Source: a virus. From it: DNA of 64,000 nt. Shown here piece by piece: positions 5,288 through 18,964 of this stretch; positions within the stretch are counted from its first letter, which is position 1, and each line of letters begins with the position of its first letter. Under the pieces are notes generated by a model. It was not told the DNA's origin. It saw only the letters and a program-made list of their open reading frames with translations, and searched no databases. Position numbers and translations under genes: made by a program. The DNA lies in IMG/VR virus record IMGVR_UViG_3300031949_000029, positions 420 through 64,419 of that record; one strand, 5' to 3'.

Positions 5288-5770
5288 TCATCCAATTTTT
5301 CTGCTGATCAGTTTGCCTTGGGTCCGCACTAGATGGTCAGCACAATGAGAGGCAGCCCAGGCGTCTGGCTTGATCAAGACTTTGAAACCCTGGCTTACCA
5401 CTAGGCCGACCAGCTCCTGGATATACAGGCTGCTCTTGTGAGCCACCACCGGGTTAGCGTCGATGTGGATAGAGAGAGCCCCAGGAACAACTGACTCTAA
5501 CTCCATACCTAGAGCAACGGAGAGCCAGACCTCCCTAAATAGACGCTCTCGAAGGCTAGTGATGCGCGGAGTAATTTCTCGCCTATAAGCTGCACGTCCA
5601 CCTTTGCCAGGAGTCAAAACCGCTACCACAGTCACAAACTGAGTGTAGCGAGCTACTTGCAGAGAATCAGTGCCAACGTGGACGGCTTGGCCAGAGAGCG
5701 CAGCGACCCTAACAAACTCCCCGATGTCTGGGATCTTGATGCCCCCAAGGGTACGCCAGCTGCTGGTCAT
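5288..5770 (-). CDS. RNase H-like YkuK (DUF458) family protein
   Basis: HVGTDS...FVTVV...RERLFREVWLS...IHIDAN...IKPDAWAASHCAD. Confidence 0.8.
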   Translation of the reverse strand: MTSSWRTLGGIKIPDIGEFVRVAALSGQAVHVGTDSLQVARYTQFVTVVAVLTPGKGGRAAYRREITPRITSLRERLFREVWLSVALGMELESVVPGALSIHIDANPVVAHKSSLYIQELVGLVVSQGFKVLIKPDAWAASHCADHLVRTQGKLISRKIG

Positions 5771-6518: not shown

Positions 6519-6596
6519 TGGTCTCCGGGATGGGATTCGAACCCACATTCTTCCACTTACGGTACTCGACTTAGGAGATCGAGCCGATACCCGGAG
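6519..6596 (-). pseudogene. D-armless tRNA-like gene (Arg-CCT-like or degenerate Leu)
   Basis: Perfect acceptor CTCCGGG/CCCGGAG, T-arm, ACCA and anticodon hairpin; D-arm reduced to about 7 nt. Confidence 0.65.
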
Positions 6597-6603
6597 GTAT
6601 AAA

Positions 6604-11281: not shown

Positions 11282-11356
11282 TGGTGGAGGCCGAGGGAAT
11301 CGAACCCTCACCTAGCGGGTGCAAACCGCTCGTGCTCCCTTTATCACTAGGCCCCC
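11282..11356 (-). tRNA. tRNA-Ala(TGC)
   Basis: Loop TT-TGC-AC; G3:U70; A73-CCA. Confidence 0.93.
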
Positions 11357-11625
11357 AGGGTGGGAGCGTCGTCAAGCTCCCTCGATACGGCTGGTTCCGG
11401 ATCCAGCAGCACCTTACGCCCTGCTATTTATGGACTGTTGACTAGACAGCCGCTGCGGGGATAGCTCCCCCTAGGGCCGGTATCCTCCCTTTAGAAGAGG
11501 GGGCATGTGGGGGGTATCCTACCCACAGTTAAGGCCATGCTTAGCCAGGCCCCCCGAAGGACTCGAACCTTCATCTCCGGCAGGCTCACTAGGTGCCCAG
11601 CAACGTTCTGGGTTCTAGAAAGCTT
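11357..11625 (-). ncRNA. Circularly permuted tRNA-like RNA (Yrl-like or two-piece tmRNA-like)
   Basis: Order: anticodon-stem strand GCCGG, T-arm GAAGG-TTCGAGT-CCTTC, GGGGGGC, 44-nt insert, GCCCCC, D-arm TTCT-AAAGGG-AGGA, CCGGC. Confidence 0.6.
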
Positions 11626-11631
11626 TCTGTT

Positions 11632-11705
11632 TGGCGGAGGCAGCGGGACTCGAACCCGCGCTACCAGGCTGACAACCAGGCGTCTTGCCGCTCGACTATG
11701 CCTCC
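11632..11705 (-). tRNA. tRNA-Asp(GTC)
   Basis: Loop TT-GTC-AG; G73-CCA. Confidence 0.88.
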
Positions 11706-11878
11706 CGGATGATTAGATTGACGGTACCGCAGTGGCCACACAGCAGTTTATACCGTGGGGACCGGTCATCGAACTTATCTGATCCACAAACGTAGCAGGT
11801 GAAGTATAGAAGCTTCACCAGTCTAGGTTCGCGGAGCCGACGAGTACGACGAGCATGACGGCGCTGTGGTCTAGACAT
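11696..11878 (-). CDS. Small zinc-ribbon protein
   Basis: CYVCG...CGHCG; basic N-terminus. Confidence 0.4.
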   Translation of the reverse strand: MSRPQRRHARRTRRLREPRLVKLLYFTCYVCGSDKFDDRSPRYKLLCGHCGTVNLIIREA

Positions 11879-12321: not shown

Positions 12322-12690
12322 TGGAGCCGGGACTTGCTGGTACTGCACGTGTCTTGATCGTCCCAGCAGTAGCCCGGCATGGAACCCCACGCACCGGGTA
12401 AGTCCAAGTGGTTAGCCAGTGCTTACCAACACCAGGCCACCTGGCGGTACGTGGGGGTGCGGCGGTACTGCCCGGCGAGCCTCTCCTGTCACCCAGAGAG
12501 CAGTGGGGGCCTTGAGGACTTGTTCCAGTCTATCTAGGGCGTCAACCGCCCATCCTCGTCATCCTCTGGATCTCGGCCATCGAGCCGGAGTTGCACCGGC
12601 ATGCCCAGGGGAGCGACCTTGCTGGGCAGCGGACAGAGCATGACCGTCGAGGGTCGAAGCTCCCTTCGAACCCCTCGACATGCCCTGTCA
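12322..12690 (-). ncRNA. Candidate large structured ncRNA ending in TCCA
   Basis: Several long helices, a T-loop-like hairpin, and a terminal GCCGGG/CCCGGC-T-CCA; no credible ORF. Confidence 0.6.
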
Positions 12691-12695
12691 TTTCT

Positions 12696-12770
12696 TGGAG
12701 CTGCGGAGTGGCTTCGAACCACTGTCTGCGCCGTACCAGGACGCTGCTCTTCCCATTGAGCTACCACAGC
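12696..12770 (-). tRNA. tRNA-Thr(GGT)
   Basis: Loop CT-GGT-AC; CCA. Confidence 0.9.
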
Positions 12771-12774
12771 AGTC

Positions 12775-12848
12775 TGGAGCGAGTGAGCGGACTCGAACCG
12801 CCGTCATCAGCTTGGAAGGCTGAGGCCCTACCATTGGACGACACTCGC
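12775..12848 (-). tRNA. tRNA-Gly(TCC)
   Basis: Loop CT-TCC-AA; U73-CCA. Confidence 0.93.
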
Positions 12849-12850
12849 TC

Positions 12851-12960
12851 TGTGGTGGCCAGACTCGACACTGGCTGTCCCGGCTGCGGGCTATGCGTGT
12901 AGAATATCTACACGATCCGCGACATGTCCCGCACCGCGTGTCCTTCCACGCCGCACCACA
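12851..12960 (-). ncRNA. tRNA-shaped RNA with an enlarged, branched anticodon domain
   Basis: Acceptor TGTGGTG/CACCACA; D-arm GCGTG-GAAGGA-CACGC; T-arm GCCAG-TGTCGAGT-CTGGC. Confidence 0.65.
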
Positions 12961-12970
12961 TTCGATCTAT

Positions 12971-13267
12971 GCCCTCAGTCCCTCAGTCCATCCATAACCC
13001 TACTGAGGACGACCAGGGTCCGCGCTCTGCGAGTGGATGGTCTCGCCAAAGCCGGTTGGGTGGAGGCCCTTAATGGGGACCGGCGGCTCCCCTACGCTTG
13101 TCGGGAGATTGGAGCGTGACTCTCCCATTGAGGGCTCAAGCGGAAGCCCTATCTATGGGGCGGTGGAGGGTAGAGAGAGCAGGTGTCACGTGTGCCGTAT
13201 ACCGGACGCTGCAGCGGCGGGCTGGCGGTGACACTGCATCTGCTCTGTTATTCCCCCCGGTGCCCCC
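12971..13267 (-). ncRNA. Candidate multi-pseudoknot ncRNA
   Basis: 5' long hairpin domain plus four H-type pseudoknot-compatible pairings (see finding). Confidence 0.65.
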
Positions 13268-13342
13268 TGGAGCGTGGAAGGGGATTCGAACCCCCGTCTC
13301 GGCCTTGGCAAGGCCGTGTGCTACCGGCTGCACCATCCGCGC
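13268..13342 (-). tRNA. tRNA-Gly(GCC)
   Basis: Loop TT-GCC-AA; U73-CCA. Confidence 0.92.
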
Positions 13343-13343
13343 A

Positions 13344-13414
13344 TGGAGGTAGAGCTTGAGAAGGGGAAGGGCTAGCCCACCACCGGCCCTGCGAAATTCT
13401 CTCCCTGCTCCACC
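13344..13414 (-). ncRNA. Rod-like hairpin RNA ending in TCCA
   Basis: GGTGGAGC/GCTCTACC-T-CCA; fills the slot between two tRNAs. Confidence 0.6.
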
Positions 13415-13417
13415 GTA

Positions 13418-13492
13418 TGGTAGCCCTGTCGGGATTCAAACCCGAGTCACATGGCTGAGAACCATGCATGCTAATCGCTGCACCACAGGGCC
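13418..13492 (-). tRNA. tRNA-Glu(CTC)
   Basis: Loop TT-CTC-AG; CCA. Confidence 0.88.
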
Positions 13493-13494
13493 AT

Positions 13495-13560
13495 TGGTGC
13501 TCGGGTTGCGTACCGAGCCCCCGTCTACGCTATGAAAAAATCATGCGGTCGGCGGGACGA
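13495..13560 (-). ncRNA. Two-hairpin RNA ending in an ACCA minihelix
   Basis: GCTCGG-TACGCAAC-CCGAGC-A-CCA preceded by a CCCGCC/GACGGG hairpin; 5' end uncertain. Confidence 0.5.
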
Positions 13561-13627
13561 AACTCTACCTTACCTTGTCAGGTATGAAGTTAGTCAGTTG
13601 TCAAAGAGCCATAGGCGCTGGGCCTGC

Positions 13628-13715
13628 TGGTGGGAAGCCAGGGGATCGAACCCTGCTGCTCACTGAGGAGGGGTGGTTTACAGCCACCTGCGAGACCCTT
13701 CTCGCCGAGCTTCCC
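13628..13715 (-). tRNA. tRNA-Tyr(GTA)
   Basis: Loop CT-GTA-AA; long variable arm; CCA. Confidence 0.9.
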
Positions 13716-13723
13716 AGAGACGG

Positions 13724-13729
13724 ATTATA
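13724..13729 (-). promoter_or_regulatory. Consensus -10 element upstream of tRNA-Tyr
   Basis: TATAAT 8 nt before the tRNA 5' end; no canonical -35 seen. Confidence 0.5.
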
Positions 13730-13747
13730 CTATGCCTACCTGCTTAC

Positions 13748-14407
13748 CTATGCCTGTCCTTTGTCTTCGGTGCCTGGGTCCTTAGGGTTCATGGTGATAC
13801 GCTGCAATGCTGAATAAGCCATGTGCACAGGGTCACCAGTGGCCCTAGTAGCTCCAATGTTGGCCGACAAGATGTCTATACTGGGTTTGACCGTAGCCGC
13901 GGTGTAGACAGCAGCTTGTTGCTTGGCAATTCCCAGTCCACCCGCTTCAGCAAAAGCATCCACGTTGGCTCCCAGATAGGTGAACTGCCAGCTGTAAACA
14001 TCACGCTGATGACTGATCATCTGAGCAACCTGGGCCCTGTTGTAGCGCGTGCTGGCGTTTTCCTGGCCATCAGTGATGATGATGAAGATGACTAGCTGGG
14101 GGCGCTGATCCTCAGGGGTGTTGCTCAAACGGCTGCCTACGCTATCGATGGTACGGCCGACAGCGTCCAGAAGGGCGGTCATGCCTCGAGGTTCTAGCCT
14201 GATTTCCGAGACTTCCTGGATCGGCTTGCTGCTAAACACCAACTCATAGATGTCGTCGAACTGGACGAGGGTCAGGTGGCATTCACCAGGAAGCTGCTGC
14301 TGATCAGCAGTGAGAGCCCTGAGGCCCCCTTCCATGTCTAAGCGGCAGCTTGACATCGAGCCGGAGCGGTCCAGCACGACAACTAGCTCAGTAAGGTTCT
14401 GCTTCAT
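13748..14407 (-). CDS. von Willebrand factor A (vWA) domain protein
   Basis: MIDAS motifs VVVLDRSGSM, GMTALLDA and IITDGQEN. Confidence 0.88.
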   Translation of the reverse strand: MKQNLTELVVVLDRSGSMSSCRLDMEGGLRALTADQQQLPGECHLTLVQFDDIYELVFSSKPIQEVSEIRLEPRGMTALLDAVGRTIDSVGSRLSNTPEDQRPQLVIFIIITDGQENASTRYNRAQVAQMISHQRDVYSWQFTYLGANVDAFAEAGGLGIAKQQAAVYTAATVKPSIDILSANIGATRATGDPVHMAYSALQRITMNPKDPGTEDKGQA

Positions 14408-14536
14408 ATAACTCCTTTAAGGTAATGTCACTAGAGCCCCACCCCGAGCTTCCGAGATGGGGCTCGGTTGCCTTTGAGGGAAACAGTTCTGGCAACCACA
14501 AGAGGTCCCGTGCTGCAAGCTTGGCATCACCCCCTT

Positions 14537-14611
14537 TGGCGACAGCGCCAGGATTTGAACCTGGACCCACGAGTTTTGGAGGCTCGGATGCTCCCGTTAC
14601 ACCACGCTGTC
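14537..14611 (-). tRNA. tRNA-Trp(CCA)
   Basis: Loop CT-CCA-AA; G73-CCA. Confidence 0.88.
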
Positions 14612-14621
14612 TGATTAGAAT

Positions 14622-15101
14622 CTAGGCTCTCTTCCGAGGCTTGGCAAGTGGAGATTTGCCCGAGCGTTTCCGCTTGGCTGCTGCCCTAGTGTCAGCAGCT
14701 TTGGTCTTAGGGCCAATGATCAGCATTTCGGAGGCGGTCCAGCCGAAGAAGGAAGGCGACGATGGTGGCCAGTCAGCACTCTGACTTCCATAAGCTCCAG
14801 TGCCTCGAAGCTTGATTTCTTTGATCACCCTGTTTGCTGCCACCGTTCCCTCTAGGTAGCGTAGAGCTGCCTTGTAGGTATTAAAGGTGTGGAAGCCGGG
14901 CTTGTAGCTACGCAGCTTTTTAAGCTGACTGGCATAGATCAGCTTGCTCCCCCTAGCTTTGATCCAGGTGTCGTATTTGTATGGCTTACCGGAATGATAT
15001 AACGGGGAGTCAAACGCATCATCTCCAATGGGTATCAGGATCTTCCAGGCCCTGGTGTCCCTAGGGATTGGTCCCTTTCTAATGACAAAGTACATGCACA
15101 T
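14622..15101 (-). CDS. Basic hypothetical protein
   Basis: 159-aa ORF with GAGGAGG RBS. Confidence 0.5.
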   Translation of the reverse strand: MCMYFVIRKGPIPRDTRAWKILIPIGDDAFDSPLYHSGKPYKYDTWIKARGSKLIYASQLKKLRSYKPGFHTFNTYKAALRYLEGTVAANRVIKEIKLRGTGAYGSQSADWPPSSPSFFGWTASEMLIIGPKTKAADTRAAAKRKRSGKSPLAKPRKRA

Positions 15102-15194: not shown

Positions 15195-15398
15195 TTATCT
15201 CCAGCTCTCTGGCCAATCTAGATCGAGCCAGACGATAGTAAGAGCACAGGTCAAGCCTACCGCGACTGCCAGTGGAATCTGGACGCTCATGGAAGTGTCT
15301 TTGAAGAGAGATCCCAGGAGGGCACATATGGGAATGCAGATTGCGCTGCCAATTGACCACTGCCGCCATAACCGCCGCCAGCCATCATCATCTAGCAC
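15195..15398 (-). CDS. Small membrane protein
   Basis: Two hydrophobic helices; overlaps the end of the polymerase gene. Confidence 0.4.
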   Translation of the reverse strand: MLDDDGWRRLWRQWSIGSAICIPICALLGSLFKDTSMSVQIPLAVAVGLTCALTIVWLDLDWPESWR

Positions 15399-18300
15399 GC
15401 AATCTCCTCCATTTCTCCCCAGTTAGCTCCTAGCTTGGCGGCCACACCGATTTGTAGGTGTGTACCTAGCTTGGCTAGCTCCCCCACCATTGGCTGCTCC
15501 TCGATCGGCCTGGTCATGGCATTGACAACCTTGGCCAGCACCTTGTCGACTTCGCTCTTGTAGATCTCCAGCAACACCGAATCATGAACTAGGGCTCTGA
15601 ATGGTGTGACCTGGCCTTCCTGTAGAATACAGTTCTCCATGTCCAGGTCAGTCAGCTCCAGACAGCTCTCGTACAAGACACCAGCTGCAGTACTCTGTGG
15701 ATAGTAAGCAATACAGGACTTAGCATCAGCTCCTAGTGTCCATTCGCCGCGCTGTCCATCCCACTGATAAACTTCCCAGAACCAATGCTTGTAGTGGAAT
15801 GGATGGTCAGCTCCCCCCAAATACCCCATCTTCCAAGCCCGATCGCGCAGGGCCTGGTGCCAGGCAGGAAGCTTAGGGCATAGCTCGAACAGCAGCTTCT
15901 GGTTAGCCTCTGCACTAGCTACTGTAGGGAACAGCTCCGGGTAAGTCTTGTGGAGTCCTAGAGCGGTCATCCCATAGAGAGTATTCCCAGTGACGCTGAT
16001 CCGGTTCCTATGGCGTGTTAAGAAGTAGCTAGATGGGACGGTAACACAGTAGACAGGTCCGTCCCAAGGGACCAGCGTCTTGATAAGACAGCAAACCCGA
16101 GCTAGTTTTCGCTTGTTAAATGACAGCTTGTACAGAGGTAGCCTCTTACCTTCCCTTAGGTGCATCTGGAGTAGCGCCTGTATCCCTGCCAGATGTGCCA
16201 GTGTCTGTATCGCCTCTGCATTGGATTTGTTGGTCGTCATGTACCAGGACTGCTTACCATGTCGGTGTCCATCCCAGAAGGTGGTTTCATCGACTAAGGC
16301 ACGTTTCTGGCTGGCTGTCAGGACTAGCAGCTTATCCAGTACAAAAGTTTTGTCAGGCTCAGCTAGATAAGCCAGAGCCCTTGGTATGGAAGCTTTGCTA
16401 ATTCTGTAGTAAGTCCTGCCTGGGTAGTCTGGATATTCTCGTTTGGTGAAATCAGCGTGACAGGTCTGGAGAAGCAGCTCTAACCGCTTCTTCTTTCTAG
16501 ACCTCTTCAGACAGAAGCGCACTTTCTTTCTACTGAGATGACCATCTGCCTGGATTGCGGCAGCCAACTGTGGATAGACACCATCCTCAACGGGGCCTTG
16601 AAGTATGCCATTTATTGGAATCCGATCATGCTTCTTTAATGTGTCAGCCGTACGCTCTACAAGGACATTGTTAGTGATGGTAGCTAGTCTATGCCAAGGA
16701 GTCATCGTAGCTGACAAGCCACGACCTTCTAACCTGATCATCTCCCCTTGCCAGTCACGGTTGGTTATCCTAGAAGGTACGACAAACTCGATAGCCCCGT
16801 TAGACCATTGTGCCACCTGTGTTCCAGTCTGTAGCTGGTCCAAGCGCACCCAGCCCTGTGGCGTTAAAACCTCATGTGCGCCTGATAGGCATCCATAAAT
16901 CGTGCGCTTAGACTTATCTCGCTGAGCCCCAGCCCTTGCCTTAATCGCCTTCAATGCTTGTCTTAGCTCATCGTCCCCCCAGCCAGCGTCAACCCGCTCC
17001 CCCAGCACGTGTCCAGCGTGGTAATCGTGGATACCAAGCTTGGCTAGCCGAACGAAATCTGGGTCACCTAGGAACCAGCCAGTCTCTACAGCTTCGATTG
17101 CACTAAAATCGACCTCCAGCAGAACCATCCCAGGTCCTGCCACCAGTGCCCTTCTGAACTTGCTCTCCTTGTCGACATTCTGAAGGTTCGGGTTGACACA
17201 GCTGAGCCGCATTGTAGAGGGCCCATGGGTGAAAGTCGGGTGGAGTCTGCCATCTGCCCCCAGCCGCCTCTCGGTCCCTTCTACATAGGTTCCCAGGACC
17301 TTATCAACACGTCGGTAGTCTAGAACTAGCGGATACAACGGGTCCTTAGTGGTCTTGGCTAGCCTGGCTAGTGTTTGCTCATCAGTGCTATCCCTAGCTG
17401 TCTTCTTGGCCCTCCCAGGCTTATGTCTCTTATGCTTGATGTAGTTAAGTAGCTGATCTGGGCTGCCCAGATTGAATGGAAGCTGCCTATGATATCTGCT
17501 GGTCTGCTGCGACTCCTTCACTACCTTGGGCTTAAGCTCCTTACTGATTTTTCCTTTCTCATCCTTACAGCGGTGGGTCTTAGTTACATTCACTTCTCTA
17601 CATGTCAGGCATAGCTGGATCTCGACAAGCTCCAGCTTTTCTACGATCCCAGCCTCGCCAGCTGGTCTACGCGCTAGTGACGGCCCAAGAGGTTTTAGTG
17701 CTTCGTCAACTAGGTTCTGGGCCTTAGCAACCAGTACCAGCTTCTCACTAGCCAGTTCTTGACGGTAAGCAGCAAGCCCAGCTTTGTCCACCCCCAAGCC
17801 AGCGTCTTCGGCTGGCTTGAGCACTTGACTATCCAAGCAGTAAACATGGCGTTGGAAGGCTTCCCACTGACCTCCAGCTTGGAGGTCTCTAGTGATACCA
17901 AAAGCGCATCGCAGTGTCTGCACTGCGTCCACAGCAGCGTAGCGCCCAGGGTCAGTCCCGGATAAATGCTTCCAAGGTCCGTAGTCAGAGTAGAATGGCG
18001 CCACGAATCCAAGGCCGCGTGGTAGGTCTGATTGAAGCACGTGCCAGGCCCACATGAAATCAAGCACTCTCCCTGTGGAGGCGAAACCGGCTGCTCGTAG
18101 CCTTGGGATATCGTAACTAGCGTTCCAGTAACACTGAACTCCTTGGTGTCCAAGAAGTCTCCTAATTATCGCCAAATACTGGCCAGACCAAGGGACTGTC
18201 ACCCCCTGATCTGGGTGGTAAGCAAAGTTGATCCTGATGATCTCGCCGAAATCATCTGCTAGCTCATCTTCGGCCTGCCCAAGAATCTTGTCCTGGGTCT

Positions 18301-18964
18301 CAATGTCAACAGCAAGCCAGCAGTCTTCAGTGATCCTAGTGGCCCACTGCTCGAACCAGGACGGGCTGGGGTCTACTACCAGACTAGTCGGTGCCGGCCT
18401 AGGGTCACGTCCCCCGGCCACTTCAATCGCTTGCTTCAAATCCCAGCAGACCACTCCACTCAGCTTCTTGTTGCCTCTTAGTAGGTAAGCTGGGTGGAAG
18501 CTGGGTACTACCCAGAAGCGACCATGAGGTTCCAGTACCGGCTGGCCATGCCAGTTCTGCTGCTTGTGTCCTTTGCGGGGAAGTCCTAGAAGCTGGCGAG
18601 TGGCAGAACCTCCCAGGGCCACCACCGCTCTCCTGCCTTCACCTAAGGTCTTATCCAGATACTGCCTGCAGGTGGCCAGTGCTTGGTGTTCCCAAGGGGC
18701 GCCATCTAGCCAATCATTGGGTGGCTGACAGCGTACACAGTTGTCTACCCTGACTGCTGCCCGATCGAGGCCAACTTTGGTCAGTAAGCGGTTGAGCAAT
18801 TCTCCGCTAGGACCGACAAAAGGCTGGCCAGCCAAAGCCTCAGAGCGTCCTAGCGCCTCTCCTACAATCGCTAGCTCAGCTTGTACTGGACCTGAAGCTG
18901 GGGCATAACCTAGACCCCTGTCAAACAATACGCATCCGGCACATGTCGACGGCTTCTGAAGCAC
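15392..18964 (-). CDS. polA: Family A DNA polymerase with N-terminal family-4 uracil-DNA glycosylase, 3'-5' exonuclease and an intein
   Basis: UDG: CAGC, IVGEALG..E...PFVGPSG, FHPAYLLR. Exo: AVDIET, NASYD. Pol: RLSCVNPNLQN, EVDFSAIE, KRTIYG, VHDSV. Confidence 0.93.
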   Translation of the reverse strand: MLQKPSTCAGCVLFDRGLGYAPASGPVQAELAIVGEALGRSEALAGQPFVGPSGELLNRLLTKVGLDRAAVRVDNCVRCQPPNDWLDGAPWEHQALATCRQYLDKTLGEGRRAVVALGGSATRQLLGLPRKGHKQQNWHGQPVLEPHGRFWVVPSFHPAYLLRGNKKLSGVVCWDLKQAIEVAGGRDPRPAPTSLVVDPSPSWFEQWATRITEDCWLAVDIETQDKILGQAEDELADDFGEIIRINFAYHPDQGVTVPWSGQYLAIIRRLLGHQGVQCYWNASYDIPRLRAAGFASTGRVLDFMWAWHVLQSDLPRGLGFVAPFYSDYGPWKHLSGTDPGRYAAVDAVQTLRCAFGITRDLQAGGQWEAFQRHVYCLDSQVLKPAEDAGLGVDKAGLAAYRQELASEKLVLVAKAQNLVDEALKPLGPSLARRPAGEAGIVEKLELVEIQLCLTCREVNVTKTHRCKDEKGKISKELKPKVVKESQQTSRYHRQLPFNLGSPDQLLNYIKHKRHKPGRAKKTARDSTDEQTLARLAKTTKDPLYPLVLDYRRVDKVLGTYVEGTERRLGADGRLHPTFTHGPSTMRLSCVNPNLQNVDKESKFRRALVAGPGMVLLEVDFSAIEAVETGWFLGDPDFVRLAKLGIHDYHAGHVLGERVDAGWGDDELRQALKAIKARAGAQRDKSKRTIYGCLSGAHEVLTPQGWVRLDQLQTGTQVAQWSNGAIEFVVPSRITNRDWQGEMIRLEGRGLSATMTPWHRLATITNNVLVERTADTLKKHDRIPINGILQGPVEDGVYPQLAAAIQADGHLSRKKVRFCLKRSRKKKRLELLLQTCHADFTKREYPDYPGRTYYRISKASIPRALAYLAEPDKTFVLDKLLVLTASQKRALVDETTFWDGHRHGKQSWYMTTNKSNAEAIQTLAHLAGIQALLQMHLREGKRLPLYKLSFNKRKLARVCCLIKTLVPWDGPVYCVTVPSSYFLTRHRNRISVTGNTLYGMTALGLHKTYPELFPTVASAEANQKLLFELCPKLPAWHQALRDRAWKMGYLGGADHPFHYKHWFWEVYQWDGQRGEWTLGADAKSCIAYYPQSTAAGVLYESCLELTDLDMENCILQEGQVTPFRALVHDSVLLEIYKSEVDKVLAKVVNAMTRPIEEQPMVGELAKLGTHLQIGVAAKLGANWGEMEEIAC
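15983..16891 (-). mobile_element. Intein (303 aa) with LAGLIDADG-type endonuclease, in PolA motif B
   Basis: Begins CLSGAHEVLTPQGW, ends SVTGN with Thr at +1; AIQADG and TFWDG blocks; excision restores KRTIYG-TLYGM. Confidence 0.88.

Follow-up and report, generated by a model that had tools for sequence, protein, structure and literature searches.

A sealed, anticodon-less permuted tRNA-like element in a phage tRNA array probably encodes a tRNA decoy

We found, in a 64,000-nt stretch of viral DNA (positions 420 to 64,419 of IMG/VR record IMGVR_UViG_3300031949_000029; hereafter, the window), an element on the minus strand between the genes for tRNA-Asp and tRNA-Ala in which the parts of a tRNA body follow one another in circularly permuted order. 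The element lies in a co-oriented tRNA array, its stems are conserved through compensatory changes in related phages, and it carries no Ro60-type features. We consider it fairly probable that the element encodes a small non-coding RNA with the body of a tRNA in permuted, sealed and anticodon-less form, namely, a tRNA mimic without a Ro60 handle. Since related phages keep the same shape, we regard it as a real RNA rather than a broken tRNA, and we infer that it probably serves as a tRNA decoy. Its structure is best read as the stand-alone tRNA-like "head" of YrlA-type Y RNAs, without the "handle" that binds Ro60.

The window covers nearly the whole of a 64,976-bp record that is 88% complete and has a G+C content of about 55%. 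Its DNA was found in one sequencing run only, a soil DNA metagenome that is probably its own source, and it codes for a T4-type terminase and a P22-like portal. ARAGORN detected 32 tRNA genes on the minus strand between 4495 and 14611, which serve all 20 amino acids and encode the CCA end in 30 cases. Both neighbors of the element, tRNA-Asp(GTC) upstream (11632-11705, minus strand) and tRNA-Ala(TGC) downstream (11282-11356, minus strand), were called by ARAGORN and by Rfam, and the same two genes flank the copies in the related contigs L028 and L044. The gap between them is 275 nt long in the window, and no local promoter or terminator was found for the window element.

The core of the element spans 11581-11476 on the minus strand, with the 3′ half of a tRNA placed before the 5′ half. 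Read from 5′ to 3′, it begins with the 3′ strand of the anticodon stem (GCCGG, 11577-11581), which forms 5/5 pairs with 11476-11480 and covaries in eight copies, followed by a 4-nt variable loop (AGAT, 11573-11576; RGAT in four other copies), a T arm (GAAGG-TTCGAGT-CCTTC, 11556-11572) with a perfect 5-bp stem, a G53-C61 pair and the loop TTCGAGT, and the 3′ strand of the acceptor (GGGGGGC, 11549-11555). A 44-nt insert (11505-11548), predicted by folding to form the two small hairpins GGCTA/TGGCC and TGTGGG/CCCACA, seals the acceptor end and leads to the acceptor 5′ strand (GCCCCCT, 11498-11504), which forms 7 bp with its partner, six of them G-C and one G-U. The linker C and the D arm TTCT-AAAGGG-AGGA come next (11483-11497); the 4-bp stem of this arm contains one G-U pair and covaries, and its loop carries GG. 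The core closes with a TA linker and the 5′ strand of the anticodon stem (CCGGC, 11476-11482), as seen by direct reading and by covariation. Both ends of the RNA lie at the foot of the anticodon stem, which leaves no anticodon loop, and the variable insert that caps the acceptor leaves no free CCA end. The acceptor 3′ strand is followed by CTGG, not by CCA, and the acceptor opens with the pairs G1-C72, C2-G71 and C3-G70. The first-pass annotation had proposed a permuted tRNA-like RNA of YrlA topology, without CCA or G3:U70, from the same series of motifs; direct reading recovered all of them in place, and the topology was borne out by the motifs, the fold and the homologues.

The minimum free energy fold of the isolated 124 nt is the permuted cloverleaf, at -50 kcal/mol. 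Within a 186-nt context, the folding energy is unremarkable (z = -0.73). A strict descriptor that demands the T arm, a 7-bp acceptor, the D arm and a 5-bp anticodon stem in permuted order matched the element alone on both strands of the window, and only two T arms of the window lie outside called tRNAs, that of the element being one. When the flanks were shuffled around a fixed T arm, the full structure arose, under loose rules, in 8 of 4000 shuffles. Neither ARAGORN nor Rfam called a tRNA here, and a canonical tRNA was rejected on that ground; ARAGORN accepted the element as a canonical tRNA, with a 7-bp acceptor stem, only after its halves had been re-ordered in silico and joined by a filler loop, as it did for all six copies tested. 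The tRNA-Glu likeness that had been suggested for the 5′ half was not supported; its best match within the phage is tRNA-Ile(GAT). The strings UC, (T/G)TCT and AGGA-TA are common to the 5′ halves of the window and L044 copies, and they may resemble the D arm of E. coli tRNA-Glu. An attP or integration site was also considered and rejected, as there is no integrase and the 5′ half would stay unexplained.

Relatives were reached through the family-A DNA polymerase of the window (15392-18964, minus strand), which has an N-terminal UDG-like domain and an intein-like insert and is about 300 aa longer than relatives that lack the insert. Such UDG-PolA polymerases are widespread among soil and metagenome phage contigs of about 60-70 kb, and many with 40-58% identity were found in metagenome assemblies, the contigs of which were examined. 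Other baits yielded no relatives: no hits came from a blastn search with the gap in 50,697 phage records, from the terminase or from a D-arm 19-mer, the neighboring 104-aa protein P0002 was an orphan, and four PolA relatives in IMG/VR were without tRNA arrays. An exact 24-mer covering the T arm and acceptor matched only two tRNA 3′-end fragments in IMG/VR, which read as tRNA-Lys(CTT) and are probably attachment sites.

The architecture of the element is not a one-off: it recurs in phages whose UDG-PolA is 48-55% identical to that of the window, several of which have a syntenic tRNA array downstream of the polymerase. Three copies lie in the same tRNA-Asp/tRNA-Ala gap, those of the window, of L044 (and L043) and of L028. 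The L028 copy fills a gap of 108 nt, starting 2 nt after tRNA-Asp and ending 8 nt before tRNA-Ala, and consists of GACGG, AGAT, CTAGG-TTCGATT-CCTAG, CAGCCCC, 34 nt of insert, GCGGCTG, TA, a D arm, A and CCGTC. In the L044 copy, which is the closest to that of the window, TCAGG, AGAT and CCGGG-TTCGAGT-CCCGG precede a 6-bp acceptor capped by a UUCG tetraloop, and TC, GTCT...AGGA, TA and CCTGA follow. Full copies occupy other array slots in L031 (15951-16052), L040 (16648-16736) and L045 (9205-9296); L029 has a partial copy, and an unrelated 107-kb phage contig, L019, has an analogous element. The L040 copy is preceded by a 12/12 sigma-70 promoter (TTGACA-18-TATAAT) that stops 10 nt short of the anticodon-stem strand, and 7 nt separate the end of this copy from tRNA-His. 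The L028 and L044 copies were found by synteny and the T-arm motif, several others by a descriptor with obligatory pairing. Run with filters off, a covariance model that used only the window copy also detected L031 (E = 3.6e-6), L028 (0.037) and L029 (0.09), while the single-sequence model with default filters missed true homologues.

The first-pass annotation had named beforehand, as the observation that would count against it, a lack of compensatory conservation in the T arm, the D arm and GCCGG/CCGGC; this conservation is present. Since MAFFT misaligned the 3′ halves of six copies, the sequences were aligned by structure, by hand in Python. In this alignment, 162 of 167 stem cells pair across eight copies, part of which stems from ascertainment because several copies were found with the pairing-requiring descriptor, compared with 59% when the 5′ strand of one member was set against the 3′ strand of another. 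Changes on both sides were seen in 18/21 pairs, in a set of eight sequences, too few to test covariation formally. Taken by themselves, the three syntenic orthologues gave 60/62 pairing cells, with 13/21 pairs varying on both sides. Every position of the acceptor covaries, and pairs 1-3 of the T stem vary on both sides. G-U pairs are seen only when the element is read on this strand, an indication that its RNA has the same sense as the tRNAs. Kept among the unpaired bases are the TTCGA of the T loop, the GG of the D loop, mostly TA at positions 8-9, and the RGAT variable loop, which is replaced by AGATT in L029, AGCC in L045 and ACGT in L019; AGAT or GGAT accounts for 7 of the 86 four-nt variable loops listed among 207 array tRNAs. 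By contrast with these kept features, the inserts have no common sequence and range from 4 nt (UUCG, L044) to 44 nt (window), with 8, 10, 24, 29, 34 and 39 nt in the others. NCCA follows the acceptor strand in three of the eight elements, versus an encoded CCA in 203/207 array tRNAs, and no two copies agree in their acceptor and discriminator bases, so the elements have no common charging identity.

Beyond the anticodon stem, the sequence appears to leave the functional RNA. The CCTAG/CTAGG outer helix that had been described in the window exists as sequence (11589-11593 and 11470-11474, minus strand), but it is not conserved in homologues and is built on CTAG, which is indeed over-represented in the window (377 sites observed vs 242 expected, 1.55-fold). 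Its 5′ arm is competed for by an upstream hairpin and its 3′ arm overlaps a GGGGA-GCTA-TCCCC hairpin, and both arms are probably outside the functional RNA. No counterpart of the helix exists in L028, L040 or L044; the flanks of L028 and L040 are tight, and those of L044 do not pair, all of which indicates that the RNA ends at the anticodon stem. The CUA triplet that had been read as a possible anticodon is dropped for the same reason, as nothing is conserved beyond this stem.

Based on these data, we provide a putative mode of action for the element. It would be transcribed together with the tRNA array and released by the enzymes that mature its neighbors, with RNase P cutting at the tRNA downstream and the 3′ end of the upstream tRNA being trimmed. 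The RNA would then adopt the L-shape of tRNA through contacts between the T loop and the D loop, for which G53-C61, U54-A58, the D-loop GG and A15-U48 are available, and would serve as a decoy or tether by occupying a factor that recognizes the body or the elbow of tRNAs. Because the RNA appears to be neither chargeable nor decoding, occupying such a factor is how it would act, and this role is purely inferred. The most likely partner would be a host tRNA-directed defense or toxin enzyme, or a tRNA-processing or tRNA-modifying enzyme. A phage RNA ligase or CCA-adding enzyme was rejected as a partner, since neither is encoded in the window; with 88% of the genome recovered, the gene for a partner might be in the remainder. 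The UUCG-sealed copy of L044 argues for the closed form as the one that selection maintains. Nevertheless, with its 7-bp acceptor and 44-nt insert, the window copy could be opened by RNase P, and therefore the sealed form may not be the final one.

The nearest alternative is that the element is a true YrlA Y RNA, which would use a Ro60/Rsr protein from the host or from the unsampled part of the phage genome and would tether it to an exoribonuclease such as PNPase. Like the YrlA Y RNAs (RF02553; PMC4201824; bioRxiv 10.1101/312249), the element has a permuted tRNA-like module made of a T arm, an acceptor-like stem capped by a loop whose size varies and a D arm, it keeps the bases for tRNA tertiary contacts, and it ends on the anticodon-stem side. 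Y RNAs are also known from phages (PMC12135203), and the window copy alone has a short outer helix. Moreover, L033, whose PolA is 55% identical, encodes a bona fide Ro60 (gene 13002-14636; TROVE 179 bits, vWA_Ro60 191 bits) in the equivalent region, downstream of its polymerase, so a Ro60 system is within reach of this phage group. However, the Ro60-binding motif of YrlA, GNCGAA(N0-1)G or CGAA near the 5′ end (PMC4201824; PMC12135203), is absent from the whole 275-nt gap both as GNCGAA and as CGAA, and the outer helix measures only 5 bp. A conserved basal stem that could carry a Ro60 site was not found, and L028, L040 and L044 have neither room for nor a counterpart of it. The absence of a Ro60/TROVE gene, noted earlier for the window, holds for the whole 64,976-bp record (88% complete), which is also free of DUF2828, and no Pfam TROVE occurs among the genes listed at the L028, L031 and L040 loci. 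The Rfam YrlA model (RF02553) found its Bxz1 control with 32.5 bits and E = 3.4e-5, below the 69-bit gathering score, but returned no match on 11350-11640 at E <= 10; no other Rfam family matched this interval at that threshold, in line with the earlier view that the element fits no known family cleanly.

Other differences concern the YrlA body itself. Unlike in YrlA, the sequences of the D and T stems covary freely rather than being conserved, and the element, which has no adjoining Ro60 gene, sits inside a tRNA array as a unit. The YrlA of M. smegmatis shares the full 7-bp acceptor stem on a tRNA-like body (PMC4201824), but it is bound by Rsr and encoded beside rsr, and the closest homologue of our element, L044, has a 6-bp stem sealed by a tetraloop instead. 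The vWA protein near the element is not Ro60-like; a split Ro60 that takes its vWA domain from this protein (P0003, 13748-14407) was rejected, since P0003 is a generic vWA protein with no specific similarity. Overall, we regard a Ro60-dependent Y RNA as unlikely. A match of the Rfam YrlA model in L033 turned out to be an artefact of tandem tRNAs. Upstream of the L033 Ro60 gene lie a tRNA with a 67-nt insertion in the anticodon loop (12577-12709; Rfam tRNA, 55.8 bits) and, at 12717-12988, an RNA of about 270 nt with tRNA-like ends (GGTGCCT...GGGCACC-ACCA) that no tool named.

It is also conceivable, although quite unlikely in our view, that the sealed transcript is a precursor, which RNase P would cut and which would become a two-piece tRNA-like RNA after trimming of the insert and addition of CCA. 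In M. smegmatis, YrlA is cleaved by RNase P and then receives CCA, and Chen et al. identified the 7-bp stem as the determinant of this cleavage (PMC4201824). Correspondingly, a 7-bp acceptor is stacked on a 5-bp T stem in 7/8 copies, including that of the window, and TCCA, i.e., a discriminator base and CCA, opens the insert in L031, L045 and L019. However, the closest homologue, L044/L043 in the same slot, has a 6-bp stem and a UUCG loop, with no leader to cut. CCA is absent in five of the eight copies, the acceptor and discriminator are too variable for a common charging identity, and the window encodes no CCA-adding enzyme of its own.

A very improbable reading is that of a non-functional remnant, in which deletions in the array removed the outer halves of two tandem tRNA copies and kept the 3′ half of the first and the 5′ half of the second. 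Tandem tRNAs do give such a pattern, as in the tRNA-Pro pair of L019 and the tRNA-Ser pair of L035/L036, and Chen 2014 warned of it (PMC4201824). Recombination in the array has occurred as well, since 21 nt, comprising the T arm and flanking bases, are identical between the element and tRNA-Val(TAC) of the window, and L031 has a decayed copy in its Asp/Ala slot (17088-17180) with a weak T arm and a broken acceptor and D arm. Yet phages with only 48-55% PolA identity retain all four stems and identical break points, with both sides changed in 18/21 pairs; the outer halves are gone without a trace; CCA has been lost while the stems are still perfect; and no tRNA of the window has an acceptor or anticodon stem that matches those of the element. 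Judged by this sequence conservation, the remnant reading is largely refuted.

In the permuted tRNA genes of Cyanidioschyzon merolae and in two-piece tmRNAs, the 3′ half lies upstream of the 5′ half and a segment intervenes at the acceptor end, and their mature products, with a free CCA, decode as tRNAs or encode a tag as tmRNAs. That our element is such a gene, for example for a CUA amber reader, or a two-piece tmRNA, is hardly credible: it shares their permuted order, the 3′ tails of L028 and L040 (8 and 7 nt) are about the length of an anticodon loop, and L031 encodes an RNA ligase, but sequence conservation stops at the anticodon stem, the flanks of L028, L040 and L044 would yield no U33/R37 loop, the window has no RNA ligase, its long ORFs are intact under table 11 and thus give no sign of TAG recoding, ARAGORN called no tmRNA in it, and the element lacks an anticodon loop, G3:U70 and alanine identity, a conserved CCA and a credible tag frame.

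We therefore return to the sealed, anticodon-less mimic. As a tentative proposal, possible rather than probable, the tRNA arrays of soil phages may hold a Ro60-independent class of such mimics, together with sister genes that have a complete anticodon hairpin, which would act alone as decoys for host defense enzymes directed at tRNAs or as hijackers of enzymes that handle tRNAs. If this class is real, the tRNA-like "head" of the Y RNAs would be an autonomous functional module. The element separates this head from the Ro60-binding handle, and a clade in which one member has Ro60 and others do not offers a natural system for seeking the factor that binds the head; Wang et al. suggested that an unknown factor does so. 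Our literature search found no paper that describes permuted tRNA mimics standing alone, without a handle, in the tRNA arrays of phages. These arrays are usually read as tRNA sets for codon supply or against defense, and a conserved array member that can probably neither be charged nor decode would mean that they also encode tRNA-shaped RNAs with another job. The tRNA cluster of phage T4 encodes small stable non-tRNA RNAs, species 1 and 2, which are processed with the cluster; they resemble our element as non-tRNA RNAs in a phage tRNA cluster, but they are not known to be permuted, sealed tRNA bodies. Such elements also confuse annotation: the "tmRNA" that ARAGORN reported in L028 (15562-15812, tag APKQEVCPTAMAPAAVV) spans from tRNA-Asp to tRNA-Ala across the L028 copy and is an artefact of it.

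The candidate sister genes form a second permuted tRNA-like type, with a T arm, a 7-bp acceptor closed by a loop of 6-8 nt, a D arm and a complete anticodon-type hairpin, the break lying in the variable region (L029 13855-13935, L031 15796-15880 and L045 9041-9115). The loops are CTTAGGA and CTTCGAA in L029 and L045, and if RNase P opens these RNAs, they could be two-piece tRNAs with an anticodon. At 13700-14420 in L029, the motif AGCACTG, a few bases and G-TTACATGC are repeated before each small RNA module, and a spacer containing CGACTTC is repeated after each; these repeats look like a phage-specific promoter or processing signal. The Asp/Ala slot itself turns over between phages, and in L042 (10020-10352) it contains an HNH-endonuclease-like ORF.

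Several further features of the arrays were observed. Between tRNA-Leu and tRNA-Asp, the window encodes a 60-aa zinc-ribbon ORF with two CxxC pairs (11699-11878, minus strand), the stop codon of which overlaps the 5′ end of tRNA-Asp. At 6519-6600 (minus strand) lies a tRNA-like gene that was called by neither ARAGORN nor Rfam, with a 7-bp acceptor (CTCCGGG/CCCGGAG), a T arm, an encoded CCA, an anticodon hairpin loop CTCCTAA (CCT, Arg) and a long variable region but no normal D arm; TTGACA-N17-TATACC lies directly upstream, and related arrays have a tRNA-Arg(CCT) in the equivalent region. A PF04308 "RNaseH_like" (YkuK-type) gene, 58-69% identical, marks the distal end of the arrays (window 5288-5770, minus strand; L028 21477-21953; L031 from 22343; L040 19541-19999; L034-L038). 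A plausible one-piece tmRNA with the tag ADYALPQAA was seen in a related array, at 6709-7012 of L037/L038. Additionally, a stand-alone vWA/MIDAS protein of about 220 aa lies in or beside the tRNA arrays of several unrelated phages (window 13748-14407, minus strand; L031 20404-21075; L025 13663-14334; L019; L011), and its homologues with a named source are from Planctomycetota (Limnoglobus, Gemmata and Pirellulaceae).
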